64,000 bases of DNA from Candidatus Nomurabacteria bacterium (lineage in GTDB: Bacteria > Patescibacteriota > Saccharimonadia > JAGOAT01): assembly GCA_020639315.1 (NCBI GenBank), contig JACKGM010000002.1, forward strand, positions 94,321 to 158,320, written 5' to 3'. The position numbers and the translations under genes are program-made. Below are positions 5,697-63,138 of the stretch, one piece after another. Below the pieces are notes generated by a model, which saw only the letters and a program-made list of their open reading frames with translations, did no database searches and was not told the DNA's origin. Within the stretch, counting starts at the first letter, position 1, and every line of letters begins with the position of its first letter.

Positions 5697-5702
5697 TATA
5701 AT
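5697..5702 (+). promoter_or_regulatory. -10 box TATAAT 6 nt upstream of the ATG at 5709 (leaderless-type arrangement)
   Basis: TATAAT-tactct-ATG with no SD sequence. Confidence 0.3.
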
Positions 5703-5708
5703 TACTCT

Positions 5709-6242
5709 ATGCCAATACTAAAAGAAACCCCTGCAAATCCCCTGAGTCAATACAGTAAAATCAAACTTACCCTAGATACCAATCTAAGTCAGATCAGTAA
5801 CCTAAAAGTTTTATTACAGGAAATTGAAAAAACTCCAGATCTACTTGACCGCCTTGAGCTCAAAATCATGATTACCGATACTACTGATTATATGGAGGGG
5901 ACAGGAAGTCAAATAGCTCTCCCTAGCTCCTACAGGAAAAGATTAATTAGTAACCTAAGACCAAGCTTAGGCAAGTTAAACTACCAGATACTTTTTCAGT
6001 CCGATTGGACATTGAGTGTTAATCTAGAGCAATTTTTACCCTTAATCAAACAATACCCCAAATATAGCCTAAATACCCTGTTAAAAGCCTATGACAATAT
6101 TAGCTTGCAAATTGAAGCCGAAGTCTTACTAGATACTCCGAACCTAGCTTATCAGCAATTAACTCAAATCCTTAGTGATTACTTTAGCCTAACCACTCCT
6201 GATTTTTATAGTTACCATGAAATTATCGGACCCAATCACTAA
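5709..6242 (+). CDS. hypothetical protein
   Basis: 177-aa ORF overlapping the recG start by 26 nt. No recognisable motifs. Confidence 0.4.
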   Translation: MPILKETPANPLSQYSKIKLTLDTNLSQISNLKVLLQEIEKTPDLLDRLELKIMITDTTDYMEGTGSQIALPSSYRKRLISNLRPSLGKLNYQILFQSDWTLSVNLEQFLPLIKQYPKYSLNTLLKAYDNISLQIEAEVLLDTPNLAYQQLTQILSDYFSLTTPDFYSYHEIIGPNH

Positions 6243-16666: not shown

Positions 16667-19600
16667 ATGGTTAAATCTAGTAGCATAAAAAATTATTGGG
16701 CGGGTCTCACCCTCACCCTCCTACTCACCCTTAACACCTTGCTCCCAGCCCTCAGCTATGCCCAGATCACACCAATCCCCAACTCGCCCGATCAGCTAAG
16801 TAAGTCATCCCAATCATCCAGGCAAGTCAGTCAGCTAGCTCAAACAGAAGTAGATAATACTACCTCAAGTAGCCCCCTTAACCAAGCAGGTCAAGTAGCT
16901 AGTAATCTAGCTAGTCAAGTGATTGACGATCTGAGTCAAGTAGCTAGTGAGGTTTCTGATTCAGCTGAAGCAGCCTACCTCCAAAACGACTCAGATGGAT
17001 TTTACTATGTAGACTTCATTGGTAATGATGCCGGAGTAGTACCCAATGGTGGGTTTGGAGGCATTAGTAATAACTATCTAAGTAATAATATTGCTGGTAC
17101 TGTCAGTATTGATCCAGCAGGAGGCAATACTGCTACAGTCTCCACCGTCGAAATCAGACCCAACTCCTTCGATGGTTGGAATCAAGTAGAGCTAGAAGCT
17201 ACCTACTCTAGTACCAATGCCATTAAGATTAATCTCCTGACTTGTGATGATAACCTTGTCCCCAATACTCCAATCCCAGGATTTCAAAACCTCACCCTCT
17301 CTGGTGGAGTAGTAGACATCTCTAGTCTTAATCATATCCCACCGACTGGGTATGACTGCATCCGAGTCCAAGTAGTAATGGACAACCTAGCAGGTAGTAT
17401 TCCTGCTCCAGTAGTATCTAAGATCAAAGCTAGCTGGATTCCATTACCAGTCCTACTAATCGATCACTTAACCCCAGACCAAGTAGAAGTCGGTCAAGTG
17501 ATTGTCAATACCCTTAGGCTATCAGTCTCTTATGCTGAGGCTTGTGAGGTAGTAGCTTACGCACCTCTTCCTGAGACAGGAGCTACAGACCCTGATAACT
17601 ATGTCGACAATTATACTCCTAGCTATGGTCAAAACCCCAATCCCAGCTTGATCGAAGCTAGTGACAACGGAGCATATACCGCTAGTCAAATCACTATAGG
17701 GGACACTACTATCCCAGCCAACTCAGTCTACTGGGATCTAGGGTGTCTCAAGGCAGGATACACTGGCAAACTAACCTACAAGCTTAAGACCTTAAATGGT
17801 TGGGAAAATGGTATCCTTTATCATACTCAAGCCTATGCTGGAGCCGAGTCTCCAGTAGCCCCAGTCACTAGTGACAGTGACAAGACTACCAGTGGAGCCC
17901 AAAAGAACCTAACCGAACTAATCTCTACTCCCAAGCCAGTGATTGACAAGACAGTGTCGGGGACTTTTTATTACAACTATATTCACTATGTCTACGATAA
18001 TGCAACTGCTGGCTATACCCCTCAAGTCACCTACTATATCAAGATTTCCAACGCAATCAATCAGTTTACCGGTGTAGAAACTATCTTCAATGCTAGTATC
18101 AGCGATGATCTGAGTGATATCTATGATAAACTAGCCAACCAATGCGGAGTAGCTACTCCCGGTACGAGGATTAGCAATATCAGCACTGGTGGGGTGCTCG
18201 ATGATACTACTCTAGGATCTGAGGTAATTGACTGGACTGGTCTAGGTAATATGTTACCAAACCAGAGCAAATATGTAAGTTTTTCTGTCAATTATGCAGG
18301 TTGTCCTGACGATCAAGTGATCAACAATACTGCTACCTTTAGTGCTGACAATATTAGCGATATTTCAGATGCAATTGATGTGGTAATCAATTTGCCAGCA
18401 GATATTGAGCAGGTAGGGATTTACCCTAGAAAATATTTTGGAGATACTACCTACAACAATCTCTCTACTATTAGCTTGCCGATGATCAATAGTGGGACTA
18501 CTACCTTGGGTGATCTTGTCACGATTGACAAGATACCGAAGAGTTTAGCCGATGGAGATACGGTAAACAACCAACCCCACAGTACCGATTTCGTCAATGC
18601 TAGCTTACCCAACGGAGTCAATGGTAGTATTTGGTATCGTACAGACGAAGTAGATAGAAGTATGACAGATCCCCCAGGATACGATCCCCTGACTGGAGTA
18701 ATGACTGGCTGGATTGATTATTTACTGAACCCACCCGCTGATCCTAGTGATGTGACCTGGGTGGCATTTCGGGTAGATTGTCTCAATAGCAACTTATTTG
18801 ACGCTCCTACTAGTGGCAGATGTGCCAATCAGCCTACTTCTACCACTGCCAAGATAACAGTCAAGGCGATGCAAGATACGACCTGTAGTATTCGTACTCT
18901 TAGCAATCAAGCTCTCTTTTATGCTTATGAAGGTGGCAGTGAGCTACCTTTCTCTGATCCATTGACCGCACCTCAATTGCCCAGCGACCTTGCTACCCCA
19001 CTCCAAAATATCCAGTCTGATCCAGCTCTGATTAGTCCAGTCACACCGAGGGTGATTACGGATATTAGTGGTCCAGTTGGCGTGACTCCTCCTGGAGAAA
19101 TTGAATACACGATCAAGCTCTCAACCCTATTTGAAACTGCCTTAAATACCGTAGTCACCATACCGACTCCAGTAATCAATGTCGGAGGAGCCAATACCTA
19201 TCTCAAGCTAGTCAATGTCGATACTACTACCGGCTCAGTCGACCTAAGCAAGATCTATAGCTCACCCTATCAGATGACTATCAACCTAGGCAATCTACCT
19301 GCTGGTAGTTCTGAGACTATTACTATCAAGTACCTAGTGTCAGCTGGGACATTGCCATACAAAAACATTGATATTACTCCGACCACTACTTATCAAGACA
19401 ATGCCAACTGTCCAGTGGTAGGCTCGACTGATACAATTCGAACCCAAATCTACCCCGGTGTTGCCAGTCTCATCACCTACAAAGAAGTCACTGAATCCCT
19501 AATCCCCACTGGAGACAATATCCACTATGCTCTCCATTTCCAAAACATCGGTATCAACCCTACTACTCAGACTTGGGTAGTAGACAAAGTCCCTGACAAG

Positions 19601-32088: not shown

Positions 32089-32090
32089 AT

Positions 32091-32283: not shown

Positions 32284-32292
32284 TGCTATAAT
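32284..32292 (+). promoter_or_regulatory. extended -10 (TGcTATAAT) 9 nt upstream of the mnmG ATG
   Basis: TGCTATAAT-tcatctgat-ATG with no SD. Confidence 0.35.
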
Positions 32293-32301
32293 TCATCTGA
32301 T

Positions 32302-34155
32302 ATGGCAAAAAGTCAATACCAAGTAATCATTATTGGGGCCGGTCATGCTGGCTGTGAAGCGGCAATCGCTAGTGCCAAGATTGGTGCTAAGACTGCCCTG
32401 ATCACCACTGATTTAAGCAAGGTAGCTACTACACCTTGCAACCCCTCGATTGGCGGTCCCGGCAAGGGCAATCTGGTCAGAGAAGTCGGTGCCCTTGGAG
32501 GCATAATGGCAACGATTACTGATCAGTCTGCAATTCAAATCAAAATTCTCAATAGCGGTAAAGGCAAGGCTGTCCAAGCCTACCGAGCACAGCTAGACAA
32601 AACTCTCTACAATCAAAATATGCTTGCCTTACTCAAAAGCACAGAAGGACTTGACTTGATTGAGGCTCAAGTAGCGGAGATTGTGAGCCGAGATAATCAA
32701 ATTACGGGGGTAAGGCTAGTAGGTGGTCAATCAATCCTGACTGAATCGGTCGTGATTACAGCCGGAACTTTCCTTAATGGTGAGATTGTAATCGGAGACC
32801 GAGTAGTACGCAAGGGAGGCAGAATCGATGAGGATAGTGTCTATAGTCTGAGTGATAGTATCAAAAGGCTGGGTGTCTTGTCTGGACGCCTCAAAACAGG
32901 TACTCCTCCCAGGATTGCCAGAGATAGCATTGATTATGACCAAATGGAACTTTCCCCTGGCTCTGACGCAGCAATCAGCTTCTGTTACCCAAACCATCAA
33001 ATCTTGCCTCTCTCCATGCAAGAACCTTGTTATCTAACTTATACTAACCATCAGACACATCAGGTAATCATGGACAATCTCAAGCAGTCCCCAGTATTTT
33101 CTGGCATGATCAATCAACGGTCTCCCCGTAGTTGCCCCAGTCTAGACAAAAAAGTAGCAAATTTCCCAGACAAATCTCGACATCCAATCTTTATCGAGCC
33201 AGAAGGTAGACCAGACGGAGTGGATGGAGAAAGAATGTATATCCAGGGCGCGTCTCTAGCTTTCCCAGAGGAGATTCAAGAACAAATCATCAAAACTATC
33301 CCCGGACTAGAAAATGCTAGATTTATCCGTCATGGCTACGCAGTGGTTTATGACTATTTCTTGCCGAGTCAGCTAGACAAGACCCTGATGGTTCGTAACC
33401 AATCTGGACTCTATCTCGCAGGTCAATTGATTGGGACTACGGGTTATGAGGAAGCTGCTGCCCTCGGTCTGATGGCTGGCATCAATGCTAGCCTCAAAGT
33501 ACTGGGCAAGCCTAGATTTGTCCTAGAACGAGATCAAGCCTACATCGGAGTACTAATCTCTGATTTGATTAGCAAAGTACATGTCGAACCTTATCGAATG
33601 TTTACCTCGAGAGCTGAATACCGTCTGAGCCTGAGAAACGACAATGCCGATCTTAGGCTGGCTAAGCTTGGTTATCGGTTAGGTCTACAGCCAAAATCTT
33701 ACTTGAGTCAAGTCAATCATCGAAGACAGATGATTGACCAAGCTATCGAATTACTCAGGACTAGCTCAGTCAAATATCAAGGTCACCCTACTACGGGATA
33801 CCAACTCCTAAGAATGCCCAAAACGACTTTGGCTCAGACTTTAGAAATTCTCGGGATAAGATCTGAAGTAATCGACCCTAGTATCTATGACACAGTTGAG
33901 TCAGAGATCAAATATAGTGGCTACCTGGATAAACAAGAACAAATCATCGAGAAGCAGAGAAGACAAGCCGAGATCAAGCTGGGATCGGGGATGGATTATA
34001 CAAAGATCAAGAGCCTAAGAAATGAGGCAGTCGAGAGGCTGAGAGAAGTAATGCCCGAGACTATAGCTGACGCAATGAATATCCAAGGTATCACCCCAGC
34101 TGATCTTGAGGTATTGACTTTTAGCGTCAGGAAGTGTAGAGTTAGCTTGTATTAA
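32302..34155 (+). CDS. mnmG: tRNA uridine 5-carboxymethylaminomethyl modification enzyme MnmG (GidA)
   Basis: 617 aa. FAD motif [13 protein letters not shown] and conserved [19 protein letters not shown]-like ([13 protein letters not shown]) and RAEYRL motifs. Confidence 0.9.
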
Positions 34156-34737: not shown

Positions 34738-34743
34738 TATAAT
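34738..34743 (+). promoter_or_regulatory. -10 box TATAAT 5-8 nt upstream of ATGs 34749/34752
   Basis: GGTATAATaggtgATGATGAATG with no SD. Confidence 0.3.
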
Positions 34744-34745
34744 AG

Positions 34746-35792
34746 GTGATGATGAATGATTTTGTAAACTTGCCAAAATTATCTTGCGGGGATCAGGTCG
34801 CTGTAATATCTCCATCTTCAGGTCTTCCTGGCTTATTCCCTTGGGTACAAGATCTTGGCATACAAAGGCTTCAGACCAACTTTGGACTATTTGCTAAAGA
34901 GTACCCAACAACACGACTAATGGGCTCATCTCTGGAAGCTCGAGCACGTGATATAATGGATGCTTTTGGAGATTCGAAAAATAAAGCGGTATTTGCTTCA
35001 ATAGGAGGCAATGATCAGATAAAACTTATAAAGCTGCTAGATCCAAAGGTATTTACTAGCAATCCAAAACCATTTTTTGGCTATAGTGACAATACACATC
35101 TACATAATTTTTTATGGAACCTAGGCATACCTTCATACTATGGAAGCTGTATAATGACCGAGCTAGCATTCCAGGTAAAGATACCTGATCTAACAGATAA
35201 ATATCTTAGACAAGCATTATTTAAGAGAGGTAAATTAACAGTCAAAGACTCAAGTACTTTTAATGACATAGGACTTAACTGGTCTATTAAAAATAATCTC
35301 AGTAAAAATAGAATTTTTGAAGCTAATGAGGGAACATATTGGGATGGCCATGAGGATGCAACTGGTATTCTGTGGGGAGGATGTGTAGAGTCATTAATCG
35401 CGCAAGTCAGTGCAGAAGTATACTTACCTTCTCCCAGTATCATGAATAGTACGATTCTCTTCATTGAGACGGCCGAGGATATACCAGATCACTGGGTAGT
35501 TGAGTATTTGTTAACTGGTCTTGGGGAACGAGGCTGGCTTAGTAAGATACAGGCTATTCTGGTTGGAAGACCTAAGACATGGGACTTTGATAAACCATTA
35601 TCGAAAAAAGCAAGAGTAGAATACAGAAAAAAGCAAAGATCAACCATTATAAAGACAATAAGAAGTTATAATAAAGACTTAACAATCGTACAAAATGTTG
35701 ATTTTGGACATACGGCTCCACAAATAACATTACCCTATGGAGGTAAATGTAGCATAAGACCAGATACAAAAGAGATAGTGCTGTACTACTGA
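34746..35792 (+). CDS. S66-family LD-carboxypeptidase (LdcA/MccF-like)
   Basis: Motifs VAVISPSSG, SIGGND, GYSDNTHLH (Ser nucleophile context) and DFGHT. The true start is probably ATG 34749 or 34752. Confidence 0.7.
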   Translation: MMMNDFVNLPKLSCGDQVAVISPSSGLPGLFPWVQDLGIQRLQTNFGLFAKEYPTTRLMGSSLEARARDIMDAFGDSKNKAVFASIGGNDQIKLIKLLDPKVFTSNPKPFFGYSDNTHLHNFLWNLGIPSYYGSCIMTELAFQVKIPDLTDKYLRQALFKRGKLTVKDSSTFNDIGLNWSIKNNLSKNRIFEANEGTYWDGHEDATGILWGGCVESLIAQVSAEVYLPSPSIMNSTILFIETAEDIPDHWVVEYLLTGLGERGWLSKIQAILVGRPKTWDFDKPLSKKARVEYRKKQRSTIIKTIRSYNKDLTIVQNVDFGHTAPQITLPYGGKCSIRPDTKEIVLYY

Positions 35793-36311: not shown

Positions 36312-36400
36312 CCCTGTTGCCAGATAGCTTGATGTCTCCAAAACTACCATTTCATTTGTCCTAACTTGACAAAACAGTTTTTGACCAACAGATAAGAGCT
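36309..36400. mobile_element. degenerate MITE family 1 remnant
   Basis: TAACCCTGTTGCCAGATAG..., with weak similarity to the family 1 interior beyond the TIR. Confidence 0.3.
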
Positions 36401-38268: not shown

Positions 38269-38357
38269 TATAGCAAGCTCAAAACAAAAGAACTAACTTT
38301 CTAGCTTTTTATTATTAGTAGTAGCAAATTGTCCGATTTTGTTTTTAACTTGCTATA
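38269..38357 (+). mobile_element. short (89 bp) internally deleted family 2 MITE-like element
   Basis: Same TIRs (TATAGCAAGCTCAAAACAAAAG...GATTTTGTTTTTAACTTGCTATA) with a different, shorter interior. Confidence 0.5.
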
Positions 38358-38359
38358 AT
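38351..38359 (+). promoter_or_regulatory. extended -10 (TGcTATAAT) 7 nt upstream of the dnaE ATG, formed partly by the MITE terminus
   Basis: CTTGCTATAAT-actagtt-ATG with no SD. Confidence 0.35.
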
Positions 38360-38366
38360 ACTAGTT

Positions 38367-41300
38367 ATGGCAAAAACCCCAGAGCTAGTTCACCTTCACA
38401 ATCATACCCATTATAGTATTTTGGACGGTCTACAAAAAATACCAGCCATGCTTGATCGGGTCCAAGAATTAGGACAAAAAGCTGTAGCCATCACTGACCA
38501 CGGATCAATGTCTGGGGCAATCGAATTCTACCTGGAAGCCAAAAAACGAGATATCAAGCCAATCATTGGAATCGAGACTTATATGGCTCGTAGAAGTCAT
38601 CTGGATAAATCTGGTAAACAAGATGCCAACCCCTACCACCTGATTTTGCTTGCCAAAAACTATCAAGGCTATCAAAACCTCTGCAAGCTCTCAACCATCG
38701 CTTGGCTAGATGGTTTTTACTACAAGCCAAGGATAGATAGAAAACTGCTCGAGCAATACAGTGAGGGACTAATCTGTCTCTCAGGCTGTGCTGGCGGCGA
38801 GCTAGCCAAGGCAATCGAAGCCAACGACTTTGATAAAGCAACAGAAATTGCCAAATGGTACAAGCGAGTCTTTGGCGATGATTACTATTTGGAACTTCAA
38901 GATCATGGTGACTGGGAGTTAGGCAAGATTATCAATCAAGGCAATCTAAAGCTAGCAAAAGAGCTTGGTATCAAATATGTGATCACCAAAGACTGCCACT
39001 ATACACTTAGAGAGCAAGACAAAGCCCATGATATCTTGCTCTGCATCCAGACTGCTAGCAATCTTGATGACAAGGATAGGTTTCGAATTGATCTGCCTCT
39101 TTATCTAACCAGTACCGATGAGACGATTGCTAGTACTCAATTAGAACCAGATGTTATCTTAGAAGCAATCAGACAGACTGACCAAATCGCTGATAAAGTA
39201 GATCTGGAAATCCCAATGGGTCAAATCTTGATCCCGACCTTCCCAGTACCAGACTCCGAGACCGAAGAAAGTTACCTAGAATCCTTGGTACTAGCTGGAG
39301 CGAACAGACTCTACAAGAATAACCAGTCCGATCTACCGAGTGAAGTCACTGATAGAATCAAGTTTGAGCTAGGTGTGATCAAGCGGATGGGTTATTGCGG
39401 GTATATGTTAATCGTTTGGGATCTAATCAATTGGAGTAAATCCCAGGGAATTATCACCGGTCCAGGTCGAGGGAGTGCCGCTGGTTCAATAGTTTGCTAC
39501 TGTATCGGCATCACAGATATAGATCCGCTCAAATACCAGTTGCTCTTTGAACGCTTCCTCAACCCAGAGCGAATCAGTATGCCCGATATTGATATGGATT
39601 TTCCAGATGATAGACGAGATGAAGTGATTGATTACGCTAGTCAGAAATATGGTTCTGATCGAGTAGCTCACATCGTAACCTTTGGCGTAATGGCTGCTCG
39701 CAATGCTGTCAGGGATACTGGAAGAGTACTGGGCTATGATTACAATTCGATTGATAGTATTGCCAAAAAAATTCCTGCCCCAGTCCAGGGTCGTCATATT
39801 CCACTAGCAGATTCTATCAAAAATGATCCTGAACTCAAGACCGAATACGAGACTAACCCAATTGCCAAACACGTGATTGACAATGCCCTAAATCTTGAAG
39901 GGACTATTCGCAATTCAGGAGTCCATGCTGCTGGGGTGGTGATCGCACCCGAGCCACTAGTCAAACGATTACCCTTGATGAATGCTGCCAAAGGGGTAAT
40001 CTCTACCCAATACTCGATGAATTATGTCGAAGGTCTTGGCCTACTAAAGTTTGACTTCCTAGGCCTTTCAAACCTGACTATTATTAAAAATACCTTAAGG
40101 ATTATTAAAAAAGTCTATAAAAAGGAGATTGACGCAACGAATATTCCCCTGGATGACTCTGACACTTATCGGCTTTTTCAGGAAGGCAAGACCATGGGCA
40201 TCTTCCAATTCGAATCCAGCGGTATGCGTAGCTATCTTAGACAGCTCAAGCCCACAGTCTTTGAGGATATTGTCGCAATGGTAGCCCTCTATCGACCCGG
40301 CCCTCTGGGGGGTGGTTTTACTGATCAATTCATTAGGCGCAAAAATAACCCAGACCTAATAGAGTATGGTCACCCCAAGCTCGAATCTATCCTAAAGCCA
40401 ACCTATGGAGTAGTAGTTTATCAAGAACAGGTAATGGACATCAGTAAAGTCTTATCTGGATTCAGTGGTGGTGAAGCTGATACTCTGCGTAAGGCCATGG
40501 GGAAAAAACAACGCGATACTTTGGCAAAAATGAAAGATAAATTTATCAAAGGAGCCAAGACTCATAGCCAAGTCGATGATAAATATATTAATGACTTGTG
40601 GTCTAGTCTTGAGGACTTTGCCGACTATGGCTTCAACAAGTCCCATGCTGCCAGCTATGCTTTGATCTCTATCTGGACTGCCTACTTGAAGGCTCACTAT
40701 CCAGCTGCTTTCATGGCGGCTCTAATGACCAATCACTTCGAAGAGACAGAAAAACTAACAATTGCTATCAAGGAATGTAAAGATATGGGGATTAAGATTC
40801 TTCCCCCAGATATCAATCAAAGCTACACTGAGTTTGCCATCACTCCGGACAAGCAGGCAATTCGTTTCGGCCTGATGGCGATTAAAAATGTTGGTGAAAA
40901 AAGCATTGACCAACTAATTGAGATCCGAAACCAATCTGGACAGTTTACTGACCTAGATGACTTTTTGACCAAAATCCCAACTGGCGTAATCAATAAGAAA
41001 ATCCTAGAAAGTCTAGTCAAGGTAGGGGCACTTGACTCACTAGGTGATAGGCAAATCTTGCTTGCCAATATCGAACAAATAGTCAGCTATCACTCAACCC
41101 TCCAAAAAACTATTAATTCCCAGCAAAACAGCCTGTTTGCCGGTACTGAGTCTGCCCAATCAATCCATAAGATTAGGCTGAGTCCAGCTCGAGAGATTAT
41201 CAGTGACAAGACAATACTGACTTGGGAAAAAGAACTAACCGGTCACTATATTAGCAAGCACCCCCTAGAAGAGTTTATTGAAGAAATTGAGAGTAAGACC

Positions 41301-41884: not shown

Positions 41885-41996
41885 TGTCATCCTCCGAAAC
41901 CCACCCTTCTCCTGTCATCCTCCGAAACCCACCCTTCTCCTGTCATCCTCCGAAACCCACCCTTCTCCTGTCATCCTCCGAAACCCACCCTTCTCC
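41885..41996 (+). repeat. tandem array of four identical 28-bp half units (TGTCATCCTCCGAAACCCACCCTTCTCC)
   Basis: Starts 3 nt after the dnaE stop. No spacers. Followed by one complete hairpin unit at 41997-42039. Confidence 0.9.
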
Positions 41997-42047
41997 TGTC
42001 ATCCTCCGAAACCCAGAGGGTTTACGGGGGATCCAGTATCTCCGCAT

Positions 42048-42117
42048 TACCCTATTACCACATAACCTCACGGCTTCAAAGCTGCCCTTCTTGACCTCGC
42101 ATTGTTTGATGCCTTAG
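42048..42117 (+). mobile_element. truncated/degenerate MITE family 1 remnant
   Basis: TACCCTATTACCACATAACCTCACGGCTTCAAAGCTGCC matches the first ~45 bp of the 5207 copy with mismatches. Confidence 0.4.
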
Positions 42118-42126
42118 ATTGAATAG

Positions 42127-42135
42127 TGTTATAAT
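42127..42135 (+). promoter_or_regulatory. extended -10 (TGtTATAAT) 6 nt upstream of the ATG at 42142
   Basis: GTGTTATAAT-ctactt-ATG with no SD. Confidence 0.35.
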
Positions 42136-42141
42136 CTACTT

Positions 42142-43257
42142 ATGCTTAAAAAATCCAAAACCAATGACCCAATCCTCAGGATAATATCTATCCTGATTTT
42201 AATCTGTCTACTGATAATTGCTTTTTTACTAGGCAGAAACTTCCAAACTAACAATCCCAGTTCCTCATCCCAGTCTCAATCAATCACTCTAGAAGAAGAC
42301 TCGATCGTTATCGATATCGCCGAAAAAATCTCGCCAAGCGTAGTCAGTATCCAGACCTCTGCCGACAGATCAAACCTTTTTGGTGAAAGTGAGCTAACCC
42401 CAGTCGGCGCAGGCACCGGCATTGTGATCGACCAAAACGGTTTAATCCTAACTAATCGTCATGTAGTATCTGATGCTGATGAGCTAACTATCTATACGAG
42501 CGATGGAGTGTCCCACCCAGCTGAACTAATTGATATAGATAGCTTTAATGATTTGGCATTTATCCAAGCCGAAGGTGAGGGCTACACACCTGCAGAGCTA
42601 GGCTCATCAGATCAGATGAAAATTGGTCAACAAGTGATAGCGATTGGTAATGCCTTGGGACAATTTGACAATACCGTCACTACTGGAATTATTAGCGGTA
42701 AGGGTCGAGATATAGTGGCCGGGGATGGTACGGGAGCAAGCTCGGACTCATTATCAAACTTACTCCAGACTGACGCTGCAATCAACTCTGGCAATTCAGG
42801 CGGACCACTGCTAAATTACGCAGGTCAGGTGATCGGTATCAATACGGCAGTTGCTAGCTATAGTGAAAATATTGGCTTTGCAATCCCGATTGATGATGCT
42901 AAAGGCCTGGTAGAATCAATCAAAGCGCAAGGGAGGATTATCAGACCTTACCTAGGAATTCGCTACCTTAATCTTACTCCCGAACTTGCCGAACAGTATG
43001 ATCTGAATACTTCAGGTGGAGTGCTGATCAGAGGCGACGAATCAAATCCTGGGGTGCTAGCTGATAGTCCAGCTGCCAAAGCTGGCCTAGAATCAGGCGA
43101 TATTATTATCAAAGTCGATAATCAAGATATTGACCAGAATACTAATCTATCTAGTATTATTAATAGCCACAAGGTAGGAGACAAAATCAAGCTGACTATC
43201 ATTCGTGACAACGATGAGCAGGAGCTAACCGTGACTCTAGAGGAATTTGCAAGCTAA
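42142..43257 (+). CDS. htrA: HtrA/DegP-family serine protease with PDZ domain
   Basis: N-terminal TM. Catalytic triad contexts TNRHVV, DLAFIQ and GNSGGPLL. C-terminal PDZ (ADSPAAKAGLESGDIIIKVD). Confidence 0.8.
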   Translation: MLKKSKTNDPILRIISILILICLLIIAFLLGRNFQTNNPSSSSQSQSITLEEDSIVIDIAEKISPSVVSIQTSADRSNLFGESELTPVGAGTGIVIDQNGLILTNRHVVSDADELTIYTSDGVSHPAELIDIDSFNDLAFIQAEGEGYTPAELGSSDQMKIGQQVIAIGNALGQFDNTVTTGIISGKGRDIVAGDGTGASSDSLSNLLQTDAAINSGNSGGPLLNYAGQVIGINTAVASYSENIGFAIPIDDAKGLVESIKAQGRIIRPYLGIRYLNLTPELAEQYDLNTSGGVLIRGDESNPGVLADSPAAKAGLESGDIIIKVDNQDIDQNTNLSSIINSHKVGDKIKLTIIRDNDEQELTVTLEEFAS

Positions 43258-43290
43258 CAAGCTAAGTAGTTTGTATCAAATCAACTTTAG

Positions 43291-43299
43291 TGTTATAAT
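43291..43299 (+). promoter_or_regulatory. extended -10 (TGtTATAAT) 10 nt upstream of the rpmE ATG
   Basis: GTGTTATAAT-accctaagtt-ATG. Confidence 0.3.
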
Positions 43300-43309
43300 A
43301 CCCTAAGTT

Positions 43310-43633
43310 ATGAAAAAAGATATTCACCCAAAAATCCATCAAACCAAGATTCACTGTGCAGGTTGCAATACTGATCGGATTACTGAATCTGTGGTCAGTA
43401 ATATCAACATTGATGTTTGTAGCAACTGTCATCCATTTTATACTGGCACTGACAGGCTACTAGATGCCACTGGTAGAGTAGACCGCTTTAAGCAACGAGC
43501 CAGCAAATCAGAACAATTAAGACAGCAAGCCAAACCCAAACAACCCCGTACCAAATCTGAGCAACCTGATAAAACTCCAGAGTTAGCTGAATCCCCAGTC
43601 ATCGAATCAGAAGTCCAACCTGTAGAAAAATAA
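43310..43633 (+). CDS. rpmE: 50S ribosomal protein L31 (Zn-ribbon type) with a ~40-aa charged C-terminal extension
   Basis: MKKDIHPK...CAGC...[10 protein letters not shown] core, then a Q/K/P/E-rich tail. Confidence 0.85.
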
Positions 43634-45977: not shown

Positions 45978-45986
45978 TGTTAAAAT
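45978..45986 (+). promoter_or_regulatory. extended -10-like TGtTAAAAT 7 nt upstream of the rpsB ATG
   Basis: TGTTAAAAT-tacagct-ATG with no SD. Confidence 0.3.
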
Positions 45987-45993
45987 TACAGCT

Positions 45994-46725
45994 ATGTCTA
46001 AACAATTATCCAAGTCAATCACCCTGAGCGTAACCGTTGAAGAACTTTTTCAATCTGGTGCACATATTGGTCACAAAACAAGTCACTGGAATCCGAGTAT
46101 CAAAAATTTTTTACATTCAAGCAAGTCAAATACTCATATCATAGATCTTTTTCAGTCAATCGAGCAGCTCGAAGCAGCCTGTCAGGCAGTCTATAGCCTT
46201 GGTAAAAAAGGTCAAAAGCTTCTATTTGTCGGAACCAAATCTCAAGCCGCACCAGTCCTGACTGCTTTAGCCAAAGAGATTGATGCTCCATATGTGACAA
46301 AGCGTTGGCCGGGTGGACTTTTGACCAACTTTGAAACTATTTCTTCAAGATTAAAGAAGCTAACCGAGATGGAAAAAACCCTTGATGATCAGAGCCTCAG
46401 AGCAAAGTATACCAAAAGGGAGCTAGGCAAGATGGAGCAGTCAATCAAAAAGCTCAATACAATGCTCGGTGGGATCAAGGGTATCAAGCGACCACCACAG
46501 GCAGTATTTGTAGTCGACACAAATCTAGAAAAAACTGCTGTTCAAGAAGCAACCAAGCTTGGCTTGACCACAATCGCTATTGTCGACACCAATTCTAGCC
46601 CCAAGGGCATTGATTACCCAATAGTAGCCAGTGATGACAATCTCAAAGTAATTGAACTAATAGCCAGAGAAATCCAAGTAGCTTATCAAACTGGCTACCG
46701 AGAATACTTGACCAGACAAAAGTAG
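45994..46725 (+). CDS. rpsB: 30S ribosomal protein S2
   Basis: GAHIGHKTSHWNP motif and conserved operon position upstream of tsf. Confidence 0.9.
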   Translation: MSKQLSKSITLSVTVEELFQSGAHIGHKTSHWNPSIKNFLHSSKSNTHIIDLFQSIEQLEAACQAVYSLGKKGQKLLFVGTKSQAAPVLTALAKEIDAPYVTKRWPGGLLTNFETISSRLKKLTEMEKTLDDQSLRAKYTKRELGKMEQSIKKLNTMLGGIKGIKRPPQAVFVVDTNLEKTAVQEATKLGLTTIAIVDTNSSPKGIDYPIVASDDNLKVIELIAREIQVAYQTGYREYLTRQK

Positions 46726-46767
46726 CAATTACCCTTAGAGTAATTTTAAATAATCAGGAGACAACAA

Positions 46768-47352
46768 ATGAGTATCAACCTAGCAGATATCAAAAGGATT
46801 CGAGAAGAAACTGGAGCTGGAATGATGGATGTCAAATCAGCTTTAACTGACGCCAATGGAGACATCACAAAGGCCAAAGAACTTTTGCAACAAAGGGGAA
46901 TAGCCAAGGCCAGCAAAAAAAGTGACCGCAATACCGACCAAGGGTTGATTGAAACCTACAACCATCTAGGCAAAGTCGGAGTTTTGCTCGAGTTAAACTG
47001 TGAGACCGATTTCGTTGCAAGGACTGATGACTTCAAGGCATTAGCCAAAGAAATAGCAATGCAGATCGCTGCTAGTGATCCTCAATATCTGAGTGATCAA
47101 GATATCGACAAACAAACTCTAGCCGAGTGGAAATCAGAAGTATCAGACCAAGTTGATACCACTAAGCCCCAAGAGATCCAAGACAAGATTATCGAGGGCA
47201 AACTTGATAAATACCGAGACGAACTAGTCCTAATGCGAATCAAGACTCTCAAAGATCCAGACAAATCTATATCTGATTTGATTAAAGCTAATATTGCCAA
47301 GCTTGGAGAAAATATCACTATCAAGCGTTTTGTACGCTACCAGTTGGGCTAG
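46768..47352 (+). CDS. tsf: elongation factor Ts (short, 194-aa form)
   Basis: N-terminal UBA-like IKRIREETGAGMMDVKSAL and the LELNCETDFVAR motif. SD AGGAG upstream. Confidence 0.85.
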   Translation: MSINLADIKRIREETGAGMMDVKSALTDANGDITKAKELLQQRGIAKASKKSDRNTDQGLIETYNHLGKVGVLLELNCETDFVARTDDFKALAKEIAMQIAASDPQYLSDQDIDKQTLAEWKSEVSDQVDTTKPQEIQDKIIEGKLDKYRDELVLMRIKTLKDPDKSISDLIKANIAKLGENITIKRFVRYQLG

Positions 47353-49686: not shown

Positions 49687-49971
49687 ATGGCAGCCGAAAT
49701 AGATCCAACTAGCTTGCCTGACGGGCAAAAACCAACTGATGAGCTTGATTCTGACCAATTACCAACAAAACTTTTAACTCATCAAATTATTGTGCCTGAC
49801 AATGGCGACTGCAATTACTGCCTAGTGCCAATTACCGAGAGGGGTACTAGTACTAGTGGCGTTGAGCCATATCACCCGAGAGATTTACTGGAATTAATTA
49901 GAGCTAATCATAGACCCGACTGTGAGGACACCCCGGCTGATACAGTAGCTCAACTGGTCCAAGAGTATTAA
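49687..49971 (+). CDS. hypothetical acidic protein
   Basis: 94-aa ORF. Its stop codon TAA (49969-49971) is the first three bases of the MITE family 1 TIR. Confidence 0.35.
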   Translation: MAAEIDPTSLPDGQKPTDELDSDQLPTKLLTHQIIVPDNGDCNYCLVPITERGTSTSGVEPYHPRDLLELIRANHRPDCEDTPADTVAQLVQEY

Positions 49972-50131: not shown

Positions 50132-50150
50132 TTGTCAATCAGACCTGGAA

Positions 50151-50588: not shown

Positions 50589-50641
50589 CATCTCGAATAC
50601 TCGGAGCTTTATCTAGGTAATTACCTAGACAGCATTACACA

Positions 50642-53188: not shown

Positions 53189-53231
53189 TGACATCAGGCC
53201 TTAGAAGGCTTTTTTTATTGGTACAATTATT

Positions 53232-53453
53232 ATGAGTAGCAAAGCCAGTCAAGCAAACATCTTTAAGAGAATCGGAGATTTTTTCTCTACTTATATTGAA
53301 GAGGCACGCAAAGTTACCTGGCCAAGTCGTCCCGAAATTGTACGGGTGACAATCATGGTAATAATTGTCACCATCATTAGTGCAATAATTATTTTTGTCC
53401 TAAATCGAATTTTCGACATATCATTAACGAGGTTTATCGAACTAAATGGCTAA
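53232..53453 (+). CDS. secE: preprotein translocase subunit SecE
   Basis: 73 aa with a single C-terminal TM and a KVTWPSRPE motif. Lies immediately upstream of and overlapping nusG. Confidence 0.75.
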   Translation: MSSKASQANIFKRIGDFFSTYIEEARKVTWPSRPEIVRVTIMVIIVTIISAIIIFVLNRIFDISLTRFIELNG

Positions 53454-55345: not shown

Positions 55346-55377
55346 CTATATTCTGTAAAATAAGCTAAGATAGTAAT

Positions 55378-56013
55378 ATGGTTAATAAACCCAATCCAAA
55401 TCCTCAGTATATTGTGATCGAAGGAGCCGAAGGATCTGGTAAATCTACTCAAGTAGAAAGGTTAGCTCAATACCTTACTGATCAGGGGATTCTTACCAAG
55501 GTGGTTAGGGAACCTGGATCAACTCCAGCCGGTGAAGCAATCCGTAATCTCAATCAGCATAGCAAGTTTGACCTAGACCCAAAAACTGGGCTATTGCTGG
55601 TTTATGCAGCGCGAGTAGAACTCCTAAACTATATATCCCAACTGACCAAATCTGGACAATGGGTGATCAGTGACCGCAACTACCTATCTACCTATGCCTA
55701 CCAAGGCTATGGCCAAGGGATGGATATATCCACAATCGACCAAGTGCACCGGGCTGTAATGCCTGATAATCTAGTACCTGATCATACTTTTGTGATCGAT
55801 ACAAGCTTTGCTACCAATCAAGCTAGACTTGGATCCCAAGCAGCAGAATTAGATCGTTTTGAGCGCATGGGTCCAGATTTTCATACTAGAGTCCATCAAG
55901 GATACCAAAAATTAATTAAGAATCAACCAAATATTACTCGGGTCAATGGCGACCAGACTATTGCAGCAATCCATGCTGATATTGTTGAGCATCTAGATAC
56001 TAGTCATAGATAG
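55378..56013 (+). CDS. tmk: thymidylate kinase
   Basis: P-loop IVIEGAEGSGKSTQ and a DR(N)Y..S..AYQ motif. Confidence 0.85.
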   Translation: MVNKPNPNPQYIVIEGAEGSGKSTQVERLAQYLTDQGILTKVVREPGSTPAGEAIRNLNQHSKFDLDPKTGLLLVYAARVELLNYISQLTKSGQWVISDRNYLSTYAYQGYGQGMDISTIDQVHRAVMPDNLVPDHTFVIDTSFATNQARLGSQAAELDRFERMGPDFHTRVHQGYQKLIKNQPNITRVNGDQTIAAIHADIVEHLDTSHR

Positions 56014-59005: not shown

Positions 59006-59036
59006 TTATTAGCACAAAAGCACAAAGGAGGGTACT

Positions 59037-60659
59037 ATGAATAATGATCTGATTCAAGTGGTAAATCAGCCTACAGACAAGGGTAGAGAGCTACTCAAGA
59101 GTGTCGTGACAAATATTTCTGGTAATGTCTATGGTTTTTGGCCATTTGTACCTGCTAGTACTGTAGCAGCTGCTATGGCCAGGCTATCCAGAAGCCCTGA
59201 AGACTTAAGAAATAACTTACTTTTAGAGTTTCCTGATGAGATAAAGGAGCTTGATCAGATCAAACTACTATATGAAAAAGTCGATCAAAACAAATCGTCT
59301 GATCTAATGAAGAGGGTACTGACGGCCTATGGTGATGACTCAGTCCAACAATTACTACCCATCCAGCTAGTAATCGAGAATACCTCCAATCTAATGACCA
59401 AAACTATTGAGTGGCATCGATTAGGAGCTTATCTTGAGCAATCCACCAGATATATCTATTTTGACCAAAAACAAAATGGCAGATACCGTTATCATACCCC
59501 TGAAGAACTATCTCAAGCTGATCAAAAATTTTATAATTCCTCAATGGATCTGATATTTGATAATTATTCTAGTTTAGTCACTCAGCTTACAAATTACATT
59601 AGAGTCAAAAATCCGAAACCAATTGACAAAACTGAGATTCTTGCCTGGACTGGAGCCACTAGAGCTCAAGCCTGTGACGCTGCTAGGCCTTTGTTCCCAG
59701 TAGCTACGACTTCTACAGTAGGTGTCGTTGCCAATGCTCAGACTATTGAATATATGATCGTTTCATTACTATCAAACCCCCTGACAGAAGCTCAAAAATT
59801 AGGACTGTCCATCCTCAAAGAAGTTCGTAAGATTTATCCAGTATTTTTTGAGCGAGCTGATATGCCCGGCAGGGGGCTTGCATTGTCTGCTTACAAATCA
59901 GAAATAGCAAGGGAACTATCTGAGCTTTCCAAGAGTTTACCCTTGACTAGAGGAGCCAACTTTAGACCAGTCAGGCTCTTAAACACCTGGCCAGACTTTG
60001 ATCAGATTTACAGTAATATTCTTTTTGATCAGACCAAGCTTGACAATTTGGAGATCAAAAATATAACCGATAATTACTCACCTGAAGAAAAGCAAAACCT
60101 ATGGGATACTTTTGTTGGCAAACGGATGAATCGTAGACACAAACCCGGTAGAGCTCTTGAGCTAATTCATTATGAATGGGAGATTGTTGGAGATTATGGC
60201 ACTTTTAGAGACCTTCAAAGACACAGAATAGTTGACGACATGAGATGGCAGAAACTTTCTCCAAATCTAGGCTACCAGATACCCGAGCTAGTGATAGAAT
60301 CGGGTCTTGAAAATCTATATCGATCAACCGTAGACTTATCCGAACGACTCTACAACCATCTGATACAAAACTATAATCAAACTATTGCCCAATATGCTTG
60401 CCTTTTGACTCACAATATGCGCTATCGTTTTGTGATCAATGCTCGAAGTCTAACCCATCTACTTGAAATCCGTACTACACCCCAGGGACACCCCGGGTAT
60501 CGCAAAATCTGTCAAGAGATGTATAATCAAGTAATGCAAGCTACACCAGAAGTCGCCAAAATGATGAAATTTGTCAATAAAGGTGAAGACCCTGAGCTGA
60601 CTAGACTAGCAAGTGAGCAAGCAACTGTAAAAAGATTGGAGGAGCTAACCAGACAATGA
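59037..60659 (+). CDS. thyX: double-length (540 aa) ThyX-like FAD-dependent thymidylate synthase family protein
   Basis: SD AAGGAGGG. N-half has ...WHRLGAYLEQSTRY (ThyX-motif-like). C-half has GTFRDLQRHR and NARSLTHLLEIRT (R..l.hf...R pattern). About twice the usual ThyX length. Confidence 0.6.
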   Translation: MNNDLIQVVNQPTDKGRELLKSVVTNISGNVYGFWPFVPASTVAAAMARLSRSPEDLRNNLLLEFPDEIKELDQIKLLYEKVDQNKSSDLMKRVLTAYGDDSVQQLLPIQLVIENTSNLMTKTIEWHRLGAYLEQSTRYIYFDQKQNGRYRYHTPEELSQADQKFYNSSMDLIFDNYSSLVTQLTNYIRVKNPKPIDKTEILAWTGATRAQACDAARPLFPVATTSTVGVVANAQTIEYMIVSLLSNPLTEAQKLGLSILKEVRKIYPVFFERADMPGRGLALSAYKSEIARELSELSKSLPLTRGANFRPVRLLNTWPDFDQIYSNILFDQTKLDNLEIKNITDNYSPEEKQNLWDTFVGKRMNRRHKPGRALELIHYEWEIVGDYGTFRDLQRHRIVDDMRWQKLSPNLGYQIPELVIESGLENLYRSTVDLSERLYNHLIQNYNQTIAQYACLLTHNMRYRFVINARSLTHLLEIRTTPQGHPGYRKICQEMYNQVMQATPEVAKMMKFVNKGEDPELTRLASEQATVKRLEELTRQ

Positions 60660-62748: not shown

Positions 62749-62757
62749 TGATACAAT
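62749..62757 (+). promoter_or_regulatory. extended -10-like TGaTACAAT 9 nt upstream of the ATG at 62767
   Basis: TGATACAAT-acgaccaag-ATG with no SD. Confidence 0.3.
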
Positions 62758-62766
62758 ACGACCAAG

Positions 62767-63138
62767 ATGAAACCACAAAAGAAAATCCTTTTAGTCGAGG
62801 ATGACGATCAGCTAAGCAAGATCTATCAGACTAGGCTCAAAGCAGAAGGTTTTGACCTCAAAGTGGCTCAAGATGGTGAGGAGGGGCTAGCTACTGCCTT
62901 GGACTTCAAGCCTGATCTAATCCTGCTCGACATCATGATGCCCAAAATCTCTGGCTATGATGTATTGGATATTCTCAAAAATACTCCCGAATTCAAGTCA
63001 AAAATTGTGATCATTAGTGCTTTATCACAACCTAGTGATATTCAAAAAGCCAAATCACTTGGTGCCGACCTATACTTAGTCAAATCCCAAGTCAGCATTG
63101 CTGAAGTCGTAGACAGTATCAAATCCCTGGTCAGCTGA
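62767..63138 (+). CDS. single-domain response regulator (CheY-like receiver)
   Basis: ILLVEDDD...DLILLDIMMPKISGYDVL...ALSQP...KSLGADLYLVK. No output domain. Confidence 0.8.
   Translation: MKPQKKILLVEDDDQLSKIYQTRLKAEGFDLKVAQDGEEGLATALDFKPDLILLDIMMPKISGYDVLDILKNTPEFKSKIVIISALSQPSDIQKAKSLGADLYLVKSQVSIAEVVDSIKSLVS

Follow-up and report, generated by a model that had tools for sequence, protein, structure and literature searches.

Our analysis of a 64-kb stretch of DNA (hereafter, the window) from Candidatus Saccharibacteria (TM7, CPR/Patescibacteria), together with related loci totalling about 250 kb, indicated that translation very probably starts here under a mixed leaderless/SD regime of the GeneMarkS-2 group C type (an assignment by analogy, from equivalent statistics obtained by hand), which would result from sigma-70 -10 boxes abutting ATG codons. 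Judging by sequence, leaderless mRNAs are probably produced from about 40% of the operon-first genes, dnaE and ribosomal-protein genes among them. A mixed regime had been proposed in a preliminary description of the window, and it was supported by the enrichment of the spacing, the restriction to first genes, the exclusion of SDs and conservation. SDs matching the canonical anti-SD occur on other genes, so the regime is correctly described as mixed.

The eight boxes listed earlier, with their gaps and start codons, each match the sequence exactly (Table 1), and the identities of the flagged genes agreed with NCBIfam and Pfam. The box was of the extended form (TGn) at six of the eight window sites and at 16 of 44 pooled sites. 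In htrA, the spacer between -35 and -10 measured 18 nt (15 nt to TGn). The absence of SDs from these genes, also asserted earlier, held throughout: the SD core was missing in all eight, and the anti-SD duplex dG was between +1.0 and -0.8 kcal/mol in seven of them (+0.4 for htrA) and -3.9 for the LD-carboxypeptidase-like gene, whose start is likely one of its two ATG codons. ORF 5709, located upstream of recG, is lineage-specific and 177 aa long; among 1.8 billion representatives, its homologues formed one cluster only, of equal length and aligned over residues 1-177.

Table 1. Promoter boxes, SDs, start codons and the dnaE-associated MITE in the window (window positions; gap, nucleotides between box and start codon).
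Feature	Extent	Strand	Elements	Gap (nt)	Start codon	Remarks
htrA promoter and start	42106..42144	+	-35 TTGATG 42106-42111; TGTTATAAT 42127-42135	6	ATG 42142	
dnaE	38351..38369	+	extended -10 TGCTATAAT 38351-38359	7	ATG 38367	
mnmG	32284..32304	+	extended -10 TGCTATAAT 32284-32292	9	ATG 32302	
rpmE	43271..43312	+	-35 TTGTAT 43271-43276; 17-nt spacer; TGTTATAAT 43291-43299	10	ATG 43310	MKKDIHP...
rpsB	45978..45996	+	extended -10 TGTTAAAAT 45978-45986	7	ATG 45994	
Single-domain response regulator	62749..62769	+	extended -10 TGATACAAT 62749-62757	9	ATG 62767	
ORF 5709	5697..5711	+	TATAAT 5697-5702	6	ATG 5709	
LD-carboxypeptidase-like	34738..34754	+	TATAAT 34738-34743	2; 5; 8	GTG 34746; ATG 34749; ATG 34752	
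secE-nusG-rplK-rplA operon	53219..53234	+	extended -10 TGGTACAAT 53219-53227	4	ATG 53232	extra possible case
tmk	55366..55380	+	TAAGAT (4/6 matches)	6	ATG 55378	extra weak case
Giant gene	16557..16669	+	TGATATAAT 16557-16565; SD AGGAGGG 16657-16663		ATG 16667	leadered, SD-led contrast
tsf	46756..46770	+	SD AGGAG 46756-46760		ATG 46768	operon-internal contrast; dG -7.4
thyX	59025..59039	+	SD AAGGAGGG 59025-59032		ATG 59037	contrast; dG -12.1
MITE upstream of dnaE	38269..38357	+	TIRs TATAGCAAGCTCAAAAC...GTTTTTAACTTGCTATA			internally deleted copy, ~89 nt (full 166 nt)

To count the boxes, we used a sample of 39 window genes (21 operon-first and 18 operon-internal) and scored a TATAAT-like box at a gap of 5-10 nt, with 1000 dinucleotide shuffles as the control. 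Such a box preceded 8 of the 21 operon-first genes, versus 1.66 +/- 1.2 in the shuffles, none of which reached eight, and it preceded 0 of the 18 operon-internal genes. The recurrent box-to-ATG spacing claimed in the preliminary description is thus strongly enriched over the shuffled control, on the scale of the window and the related loci rather than genome-wide. The window contained 42 matches to TGnTAnnnT, 26 inside genes and 16 intergenic, and seven of the intergenic ones lay 4-10 nt upstream of an annotated ATG (binomial p = 9.5e-10). In a test independent of annotation, a long ORF was opened by six of the eight ATGs at a gap of 6-10 nt after an extended -10 box, compared with 1 of 17 at other gaps (Fisher p = 1e-3); the annotation-free scan recovered exactly the eight flagged genes.

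The same pattern was seen when 120 operon-first genes from eight Saccharibacteria lineages were pooled: the gap histogram had a sharp peak at gaps of 6, 7, 8 and 9 nt (11, 10, 7 and 9 boxes, respectively) against a background of 0-2 boxes at each gap length, and the pooled internal genes gave no gap peak. When only the distant lineages were considered, a box preceded 23 of their 88 first genes, versus 5.3 in shuffles, and the annotation-free comparison gave 28/107 versus 30/570 (p = 8e-10); among internal genes of the other loci, a box was found in 4 of 38. The annotation-free test on L001, L002 and L003, where the samples are small, showed no enrichment of the box spacing.

These data bear directly on the possibility that the boxes are ordinary TATAAT-like words which happen to fall near starts in AT-rich intergenic DNA. 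The intergenic DNA is indeed AT-rich, most TGnTAnnnT matches lie inside genes, and a plain scan for two promoter hexamers was unenriched, with 41 hits compared with 33 +/- 5 in shuffles, and recovered only htrA of the eight genes. However, with -35 elements as weak as these (the best hexamer matches in the window are 2-4 of 6), that scan fails to discriminate, and statistics anchored on the -10 box were used instead. The shuffle counts, the binomial test and the sharpness of the gap peak all speak against coincidence, as does the retention of the spacing in relatives, some of them with genomes of 57-60% GC. The shuffles and the conservation already refute the chance reading, to which we assign a practically negligible probability.

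Among the first genes, 39 had a box and no SD, none had both, and 42 had an SD and no box. This exclusion is partly structural, since the box sits at the position of the SD. Among the candidates, 37 of 39 started with ATG, compared with 115 of 149 other genes (p = 0.007), and the first 35 nt of the candidate mRNAs were weakly structured (median folding energy -1.15 versus -2.9 kcal/mol, p = 8e-6).

To characterize the signal itself, we aligned 44 pooled sites chosen by the hexamer alone. T was present at -35 in 36 of them (p = 1e-10) and at -34 in 25, and G at -14 in 25 (p = 9e-9), giving an overall pattern of TTG-17 bp-TGnTAnnnT; the invariant positions of the hexamer were A2 and T6, which is the signature of RNA polymerase. 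As the TTG at -35 and the G at -14 emerged although the selection was on the hexamer alone, we conclude that the boxes are sigma-70 promoters and not ribosome-binding sites. The motif was also located far upstream of SD-led genes (at -101 for the giant gene, -60 for PBP1, and -17 to -27 for parA), with TGnTATAAT 60-160 nt upstream of such genes, and this distance from SD-led starts again identifies it as a promoter rather than a ribosome-binding site.

Alternatively, the motif could act in translation as a non-SD signal, such as an A/U-rich enhancer or an S1 site of the Bacteroidetes (group B) type, on leadered mRNAs whose 5' ends lie further upstream. It does occupy the place of a ribosome-binding site, and many internal genes lack an SD (e.g., prfA, frr, recG, uppS), which means that SD-independent initiation exists in this genome; the SD-less start regions with an A/T-rich upstream motif also resemble group B. 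However, in group B the motif is found ahead of all genes, operon-internal ones too (PMC6028130), whereas the motif seen here was confined to first genes, was accompanied by -35 and TG signals, and coexisted with canonical SDs elsewhere. A TTG at -35, a 17-bp spacer and a TG at -15/-14 would be meaningless to a ribosome, and the occurrence of the same TGnTATAAT well above SD-led genes and the invariance of A2 and T6 also speak against a translational role. We therefore regard such a signal as very improbable and retain the promoter interpretation.

Strong GGAGG-type SDs were found on at least ten genes, and for tsf, thyX, the giant gene, uvrA, rseP, pyrG and orf45487 the anti-SD dG ranged from -7.4 to -12.1 kcal/mol (-10.7 for the giant gene). 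No rRNA is present within the 64-kb window, and a canonical anti-SD was deduced from the GGAGG-type SDs found there. The preliminary description assigned clear SDs to operon-internal and IS genes; all the SDs it quoted were found, and the one in the IS110 ORF, AAAGGAG, lies 7 nt ahead of an internal ATG, but uvrA and the giant gene proved to be operon-first rather than operon-internal. The alpha/beta hydrolase gene and orf45487 are likewise operon-first and SD-bearing.

Next, we compared the six flagged genes with retrievable orthologues (htrA, rpsB, dnaE, rpmE, mnmG and ORF 5709) with relatives at 71-92% protein identity. In all six the box and its spacing were kept while the flanks had diverged, the gap here versus in the relative being 6 and 6 nt for htrA, 7 and 7 for rpsB, 7 and 6 for dnaE, 10 and 9 for rpmE, 9 and 9 for mnmG, and 6 and 6 for ORF 5709. 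In relative L006, htrA has TGTTATAAT followed by 6 nt and ATG, with the sequence above the box unalignable, rpsB has TGTTAGAAT with the 7-nt gap, and dnaE has TATAAT 6 nt before the homologous ATG. The mnmG gene of L016 has TATAAT, 9 nt (TAATCTGAT) and ATG, and the ORF 5709 locus L019 has TATATAAT, 6 nt and ATG. A search with prfA over representative genome contigs returned only three distant loci, at 39-53% identity, so that collection contains no close GTDB representative of this genome.

Over larger distances, rpmE carried TTGnnn-17-TAnnnT 8-10 nt before its ATG in eight Saccharibacteria lineages of 40-60% GC, and lepB had a gap of 7-9 nt in six of six lineages; in six distant Saccharibacteria (41-60% GC), a -35/-10 promoter lies 7-10 nt before the ATG of both genes. 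No clear rpmE box was seen in L001 or L002, which are small samples, too few to judge other CPR. The mode of initiation appears to switch between lineages, as rpsB and htrA are of the leaderless type here and SD-led elsewhere (rpsB in the distant lineages L012, L013 and L015). Leaderless or near-leaderless initiation may be ancient, conserved across much of Saccharibacteria and used by core housekeeping operons, those with ribosomal-protein genes among them; the distance from promoter to AUG has stayed at 8-10 nt for rpmE and at 7-9 nt for lepB in lineages ranging from 41 to 60% GC, and we put the probability of this broader proposal at somewhat below even.

The argument depends on the start codons being correctly placed. 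If the promoters were real and the annotated starts misplaced, the ribosome would initiate at a codon further downstream and the supposed N-terminal codons would form a 5' leader. Start calls in such MAGs are error-prone: in L006, a close relative, dnaE is called 36 codons early, at a repeat mimicking GGAGG and ATG. Moreover, rpsB has 11 residues ahead of the profile match, and the N-termini of htrA, ORF 5709 and the LD-carboxypeptidase lie beyond the reach of a profile check. On the other hand, the L31 profile aligns with rpmE from residue 1, at the family N-terminus, and the starts of dnaE (alignment from residue 4), mnmG (from residue 6) and the response regulator are within 3-6 residues of profile position 1. 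The rpmE and mnmG calls are matched by proteins of the same sequence at NCBI, and for mnmG the identical 617-aa protein implies the same start. The ATG and the N-terminal residues are kept in relatives, a further in-frame Met within the first 30 codons occurs only at the LD-carboxypeptidase start (two), and no SD-like word was seen by eye within those 30 codons. A general misplacement of the starts is thus highly unlikely in our estimation.

Another explanation would be that these are minor or secondary promoters, and that most of the mRNA comes from upstream read-through and is translated without an SD, by coupling or 70S scanning. Read-through transcripts into rpmE may exist, since htrA ends only 52 nt ahead of it in the same orientation and no terminator was predicted in the interval, and tmk is similarly placed 32 nt behind rplA. 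However, the flagged genes other than rpmE, seven of the eight, are preceded by a repeat-rich gap of 210-660 nt or by a divergent gene, and where rpmE itself is divergent, from rpsB in L012, L013 and L015 and from another gene in L014, it still keeps its promoter 8-9 nt before the ATG. This explanation is improbable, if less so than the other three alternatives.

In our interpretation, the boxes are -10 elements belonging to promoters of the housekeeping sigma-70 type, most of them in the extended TGnTATAAT form and with a weak TTG at -35. From them we infer the exact transcription start as well as the mode of ribosome recruitment. With gaps of 6-7 nt (htrA, ORF 5709, dnaE, rpsB), transcription would begin from the A of the ATG, as predicted for htrA; mRNAs starting there would have no room for an SD, and the ribosome with initiator tRNA would bind the 5'-terminal AUG. 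The operon-internal genes and a second set of leadered first genes would use canonical GGAGG-type SDs. For mnmG, the response regulator and rpmE, whose gaps of 9-10 nt exceed the usual -10-to-TSS distance of 6-7 nt, transcription would start 2-4 nt before the ATG; a leader of 2-4 nt and a strictly leaderless mRNA are equally likely for these genes.

In Caulobacter crescentus reporters, leaderless initiation was favoured by an AUG, weak 5' structure and a minimal leader, and each extra 5' nucleotide roughly halved it (PMC8459731). Our candidates follow these rules in their AUG starts, weak 5' structure and minimal leaders. They differ in that three of the eight genes would have leaders of 2-4 nt if transcription started 7 nt after the -10 box, a length inhibitory in Caulobacter. 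This may indicate either a longer -10-to-TSS distance here or less efficient initiation of these genes.

The leaderless mechanism is well known in other bacteria; for the phylum Saccharibacteria, we found neither a mapped TSS nor a leaderless report in the searchable literature. In GeneMarkS-2 group C, 25-50% of first genes are leaderless (PMC6028130), and the share affected in the window is about 40%; both have a TAnnnT 6-10 nt before first-gene starts, no SD there, and SDs on internal or leadered genes. The present case differs in belonging to CPR/Saccharibacteria, which are absent from the main text of that paper (PMC6028130), and in slightly broader gaps (6-9 nt, some 10). The leaderless transcriptomes of Mycobacterium tuberculosis (PMC3898074) and Deinococcus deserti (PMC4007540) were mapped experimentally, and they resemble our set in the dominance of a TANNNT -10, a weak or absent -35, a TSS within 5 nt of the start codon (predicted here), and the lack of an SD. 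In M. tuberculosis, however, just 7% of the -10 boxes have TGn, and genes for ribosomal proteins or translation factors are absent from the leaderless set (PMC3898074), whereas here, with starts predicted from sequence, six of the eight boxes have TGn and the set includes rpmE, rpsB, dnaE, mnmG and possibly secE-nusG-rplK-rplA. Given these ribosomal-protein and replication genes, leaderless initiation would be a mainstream route and not a stress route; any relation to the reduced CPR ribosome is a matter of speculation.

If leaderless initiation is indeed an ancient feature conserved across much of the phylum, Saccharibacteria would be the first CPR/Patescibacteria phylum shown with group C gene organisation, and the trait would be common to Saccharibacteria, the Actinobacteria hosts that they parasitise, and other Terrabacteria. 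The starts of CPR MAG genes are called by tools that look for SDs, and allowing for about 40% leaderless first genes would correct errors. The design of CPR promoters, start codons and genetic tools would have to take leaderless genes into account as well. Saccharibacteria have only recently become transformable, with tuf and rpsJ promoters (PMC10633639), and a catalogue of TGnTATAAT-N6-7-ATG sites would supply minimal expression cassettes.

Apart from the eight genes, the secE operon is a possible further case; its gap equals or falls under the usual -10-to-TSS distance, and L006 has TGGTAAAAT with a gap of 5 nt. The weaker tmk case corresponds to TAAAAT with a gap of 6 nt in L006. We rejected the TATAAT found 3 nt before rplK as a leaderless promoter because its gap is 0 in the relative and a GAAGG SD adjoins it; with its shift from 3 to 0 nt between relatives, this box serves as a negative control. 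The nudix gene of the window was left uncounted, as it has a TTG start with no ATG nearby.

Mobile elements are known to provide outward promoters, for instance hybrid promoters at IS ends and promoter-carrying MITEs such as the Neisseria Correia elements. The suggestion that a MITE terminus contributes part of the dnaE -10 box was confirmed: the right end of the copy gives TGCTATA, and the flank gives the final AT. The family has three full-length copies of about 166 nt, which we aligned (2012-2177, 5496-5661 and 32090-32253), and two internally deleted ones (50480-50602 and the copy upstream of dnaE). All copies end in TA|TAGCAAGC...GCTTGCTA|TA, are short and without coding capacity, and have TIRs and a flanking TA, as is characteristic of MITEs. 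The arrangement resembles promoters borne by mobile elements in that the terminus ...AACTTGCTATA provides the TG and TATA of the extended -10; it is unlike them in that the promoter abuts the start codon and would make an essential gene leaderless. A relative sharing 92% protein identity has the arrangement too, which makes it old rather than the product of a recent activation, and the contribution of a MITE end to the -10 box suggests that such promoters are easily rebuilt. A look-up of the left flank of the window retrieved no match; the right-flank contig (+2.5 kb) carries one more MITE, followed by TGGTATAAT, 8 nt and an ATG.

All eight boxes (TATAAT-like -10 hexamers) that the preliminary description placed before htrA, dnaE, mnmG, rpmE (L31), rpsB, a response regulator, ORF 5709 and an LD-carboxypeptidase were present in the sequence exactly as listed, as were the gaps (nucleotides between box end and start codon) and the start codons, and none of the eight genes had an SD core. 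The duplex with the canonical anti-SD had an energy of +1.0 to -0.8 kcal/mol in seven of them and -3.9 kcal/mol for the LD-carboxypeptidase; for the SD-bearing genes named earlier, together with several others, it was -7.4 to -12.1 kcal/mol. In the shuffle test, starts were taken by the longest-ORF rule, independently of the boxes, and a TATAAT-like hexamer counted as a box when it had A2, T6 and at least 5/6 matches and its end lay 5-10 nt upstream of the start. Within our set of 39 genes, annotated by NCBIfam and Pfam, 8 of 21 operon-first and 0 of 18 operon-internal genes had such a box, and 1000 dinucleotide shuffles of the same upstream regions gave 1.66 +/- 1.2 boxes and never reached 8; the spacing is thus enriched over the shuffled control proposed earlier.

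The extended form (TGnTAnnnT) occurred 42 times on both strands of the window. Sixteen of these matches were intergenic and seven of the sixteen lay 4-10 nt before an annotated ATG, with 0.2 expected (p = 9.5e-10). In an annotation-free scan, ATGs located 6-10 nt after an extended -10 opened an ORF of at least 100 codons in 6/8 cases, compared with 1/17 for ATGs at other distances (p = 1e-3), and when any TATAAT-like box was allowed the ORFs recovered were exactly the eight genes. In the pooled distant Saccharibacteria loci (L010-L015), 23 of 88 first genes had a box ending 5-10 nt before the start, where shuffles gave 5.3. Plotted for all 120 first genes, the gaps peaked at 6-9 (11, 10, 7 and 9 boxes); gap 10 had 4 boxes, and the background was 0-2 per position. 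No box signal was detected in the small samples from L001 (Parcubacteria), L002 (labelled Saccharibacteria, 50% GC) and L003.

For 44 sites drawn from the window and seven related loci, with hexamer and gap as the only criteria, an alignment on the hexamer showed T at -35 in 36 (p = 1e-10) and at -34 in 25 (p = 2e-3), and G at -14 in 25 (p = 9e-9). The boxes therefore match the sigma-70 layout TTG-17 bp-TGnTAnnnT, which is meaningless to a ribosome. TGnTATAAT was also found 60-160 nt 5' of leadered genes with strong SDs (the giant gene, PBP1, orf45487), and parA of other lineages had it 17-27 nt ahead of a GTG or TTG start, with GAGG in between. For glyA, which starts with GTG in the window and with ATG in the relative, a conserved TATAAT lay 25-27 nt before the start; the predicted leader of about 19 nt has no SD, and initiation of this gene is explained by neither the leaderless nor the SD mode.

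Among first genes, 39 had a box and no SD, none had both and 42 had an SD and no box (Fisher p = 5e-10), an exclusion that is partly structural because the box takes up the SD position. The start was ATG in 37/39 candidates versus 115/149 other genes (p = 0.007), and the first 35 nt folded more weakly (median -1.15 vs -2.9 kcal/mol, p = 8e-6). These three properties all agree with the rules measured in Caulobacter (PMC8459731). The SDs of the contrast genes, earlier described as operon-internal or IS genes, were indeed present, but uvrA, the giant gene, the alpha/beta hydrolase and orf45487 turned out to be SD-led and operon-first, so the contrast is between leaderless and leadered genes rather than first and internal ones. 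The giant gene encodes 4992 aa, with its promoter about 100 nt upstream, and contains internal repeats. The reported AAAGGAG of IS110 was confirmed 7 nt 5' of an internal ATG. The two nearly identical IS110-family copies (98-100%) have a longest ORF opening at TTG; the real start is probably this ATG, 26 codons downstream. Many internal genes (prfA, frr, recG, uppS, tsaC and orf36414) had neither SD nor box. Their starts overlapped or abutted the stop codon of the preceding gene, so that a third mode of initiation, by translational coupling or re-initiation, is suggested for this genome.

The start codons are sound where they could be checked. Profile alignments began at residue 1 for L31 (MKKDIHP), 4 for dnaE, 6 for mnmG and 4-7 for the response regulator, and NCBI proteins identical to the called rpmE and mnmG sequences exist. 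The public dnaE call of the close relative (locus L006, GCA_017983775.1) starts at 4085, 36 codons too early, at GGAGGATGAC inside a REP-like repeat; the ATG homologous to the window start is at about 4199, 6 nt after TATAAT. This is SD-biased start calling gone wrong in this lineage.

In the close relative (L006 and L016, 92% identity), box and spacing were kept while the flanks were diverged or unalignable. For the rplK TATAAT, our negative control, which adjoins a GAAGG SD, the gap changed from 3 to 0. In the six distant loci (prfA about 55% identical, GC 41-60%), rpmE always had TTGnnn-17-TAnnnT ending 8-9 nt before the ATG encoding MK..., and lepB had a box 7-9 nt before the ATG in 6/6; the arrangement was also found for LytR, LOG and other genes in several of them. 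Several of these lineages have an SD-led rpsB and htrA, so genes switch initiation mode over time.

In sigma-70 promoters, the usual distance from the -10 hexamer to the start site is 6-7 nt. Transcripts of htrA and ORF 5709 (gap 6) and of dnaE and rpsB (gap 7) would then start at the A of AUG or one base earlier. For mnmG and the response regulator (both gap 9) and for rpmE (gap 10), a leader of 2-4 nt is predicted if the start site is not further out. All these predicted starts would fall within the distance used for leaderless genes in M. tuberculosis, 'TSS within 5 bp' (PMC3898074). Since short leaders are inhibitory in Caulobacter (PMC8459731), the subgroup with gaps 9-10 is the least certain. 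The analysis shows the motif together with its position, enrichment and conservation, the promoter signature, the SD absence and the ATG bias; where the transcripts actually begin, and that ribosomes are recruited at a 5'-terminal AUG, we infer. The mixed leaderless/SD regime proposed earlier is supported as far as sequence analysis goes.

The pattern matches GeneMarkS-2 group C, in which a Pribnow box precedes an operon's first gene by 6-8 nt and SDs are used elsewhere; 25-50% of operons are leaderless in this group, which is common in Actinobacteria and Deinococcus-Thermus (PMC6028130). In M. tuberculosis, 7% of boxes are extended TGn and no ribosomal-protein gene is leaderless (PMC3898074), whereas most boxes in the window are extended and the set includes ribosomal-protein and replication genes. 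A Bacteroidetes-type non-SD regime was ruled out, as internal genes lacked the motif and canonical SDs were used. Our literature search found no discussion of leaderless mRNA in Saccharibacteria, Patescibacteria, the candidate phyla radiation or TM7, and no TSS-mapping study of TM7x; a paper on genetic manipulation of Saccharibacteria used tuf and rpsJ promoters and did not discuss leaders. The organisation appears to be of a known kind, newly recognised in a CPR phylum. It is of practical use in annotating start codons and designing expression, and of moderate interest for evolution.

The dnaE box had been ascribed partly to a MITE terminus, and this held: the right end of an internally deleted MITE copy gives TGCTATA and the flank the final AT. 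Right-arm homology is still recognisable in the relative, hence the arrangement is old. The 166-nt MITE is flanked by TA and bounded by terminal inverted repeats TATAGCAAGCTCAAAAC/GTTTTTAACTTGCTATA, and its ends (...TTGCTATA) resemble outward-facing partial extended -10 boxes. Copies lie just upstream of the promoters of dnaE, mnmG and ORF 5709 (the latter two full-length, at 30-45 nt) and of a gene past the window end, where the copy precedes TGGTATAAT-8 nt-ATG. Another MITE-like family, about 170 nt long (ATAACCCTGTTGCCATATAACCTCACGGCTTCAAA...), has some copies nested beside the first. At least 16 copies of a REP-like palindrome, about 45 nt long (TGTCATCCTCCGAAGTTCGGAGAACTTACGGGGGATCCAG), occur in the window and, with related tandem 28-nt arrays, occupy most long intergenic regions; the other strand of the unit, CTTCGGAGGATGACA, mimics SD+ATG.

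Boxes conserved in relatives, and positions of repeats and other features (window coordinates unless a locus is named)
Feature	Position	Gap in window (nt)	Box and gap in relative
htrA		6	TGTTATAAT, gap 6
rpsB		7	TGTTAGAAT, gap 7
rpmE (L31)	43310-43633	10	gap 9
dnaE		7	TATAAT, gap 6
mnmG		9	gap 9
ORF 5709		6	TATATAAT, gap 6 (L019, only homologue, 71% identity)
166-nt MITE, full copies	2012-2177, 5496-5661, 32090-32253
166-nt MITE, partial copy	50480-50602
166-nt MITE beyond right end of window	L018 3320-3487
166-nt MITE, internally deleted, upstream of dnaE	38269-38357
MITE-like family, ~170 nt	5201-5371, 31925-32091, 49967-50137, 42046-42096, 36308-36358
REP-like unit	5422-5483, 13941-14002, 16020-16138, 31643-31750, 41885-42047, 50660-50721, 52264-52382, 56775-56836, 62305-62475 and others
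Tandem 28-nt arrays	41885-42024, 62305-62475
Internal starts, neither SD nor box	43633, 47355, 6217, 47872, 56018, 37070 (-)
glyA upstream region	57770-57805; L006 20395-20436
IS110-family copies	14474-16020, 50718-52264
Giant gene	16667-31645
Giant gene, 162-nt tandem repeat	22511-23458
Giant gene, other repeats	25486-26560, 29057-30319
prmC	44655-45497
L1	54503-55345
DUF84/NTPase ORF	57099-57569
thyX	59037-60659

Proteins identical to prfA, mnmG and L31 of the window are encoded on a 371-kb NCBI contig and in MAGs that NCBI lists as Candidatus Saccharibacteria (GCA_020428505.1). The nearest other genome is GCA_017983775.1 (92% protein identity for prfA, 90% for mnmG); beyond it, identities fall to about 57%, with named matches in Saccharimonadia and Saccharibacteria. 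GC along the window is 40-48%, and tRNA-Leu was the only RNA gene found in it. The start of prmC is ambiguous: the longest ORF (280 aa) overlaps prfA by 76 nt, and public calls of identical or near-identical sequence have 250 or 242 aa. L31 (107 aa) extends about 40 aa C-terminally past the family profile, as in other Saccharibacteria loci (99-122 aa), and L1 (280 aa) is extended N-terminally by an acidic stretch of about 80 aa. ThyX, with 540 aa and two Thy1-domain stretches, is about twice the usual length and looks like a tandem-duplicated or fused protein. The DUF84/NTPase ORF starts at TTG, aligns to its profile only from position 22 and follows a repeat-filled gap of 529 nt with neither box nor SD, and so may be a pseudogene or a truncated gene.
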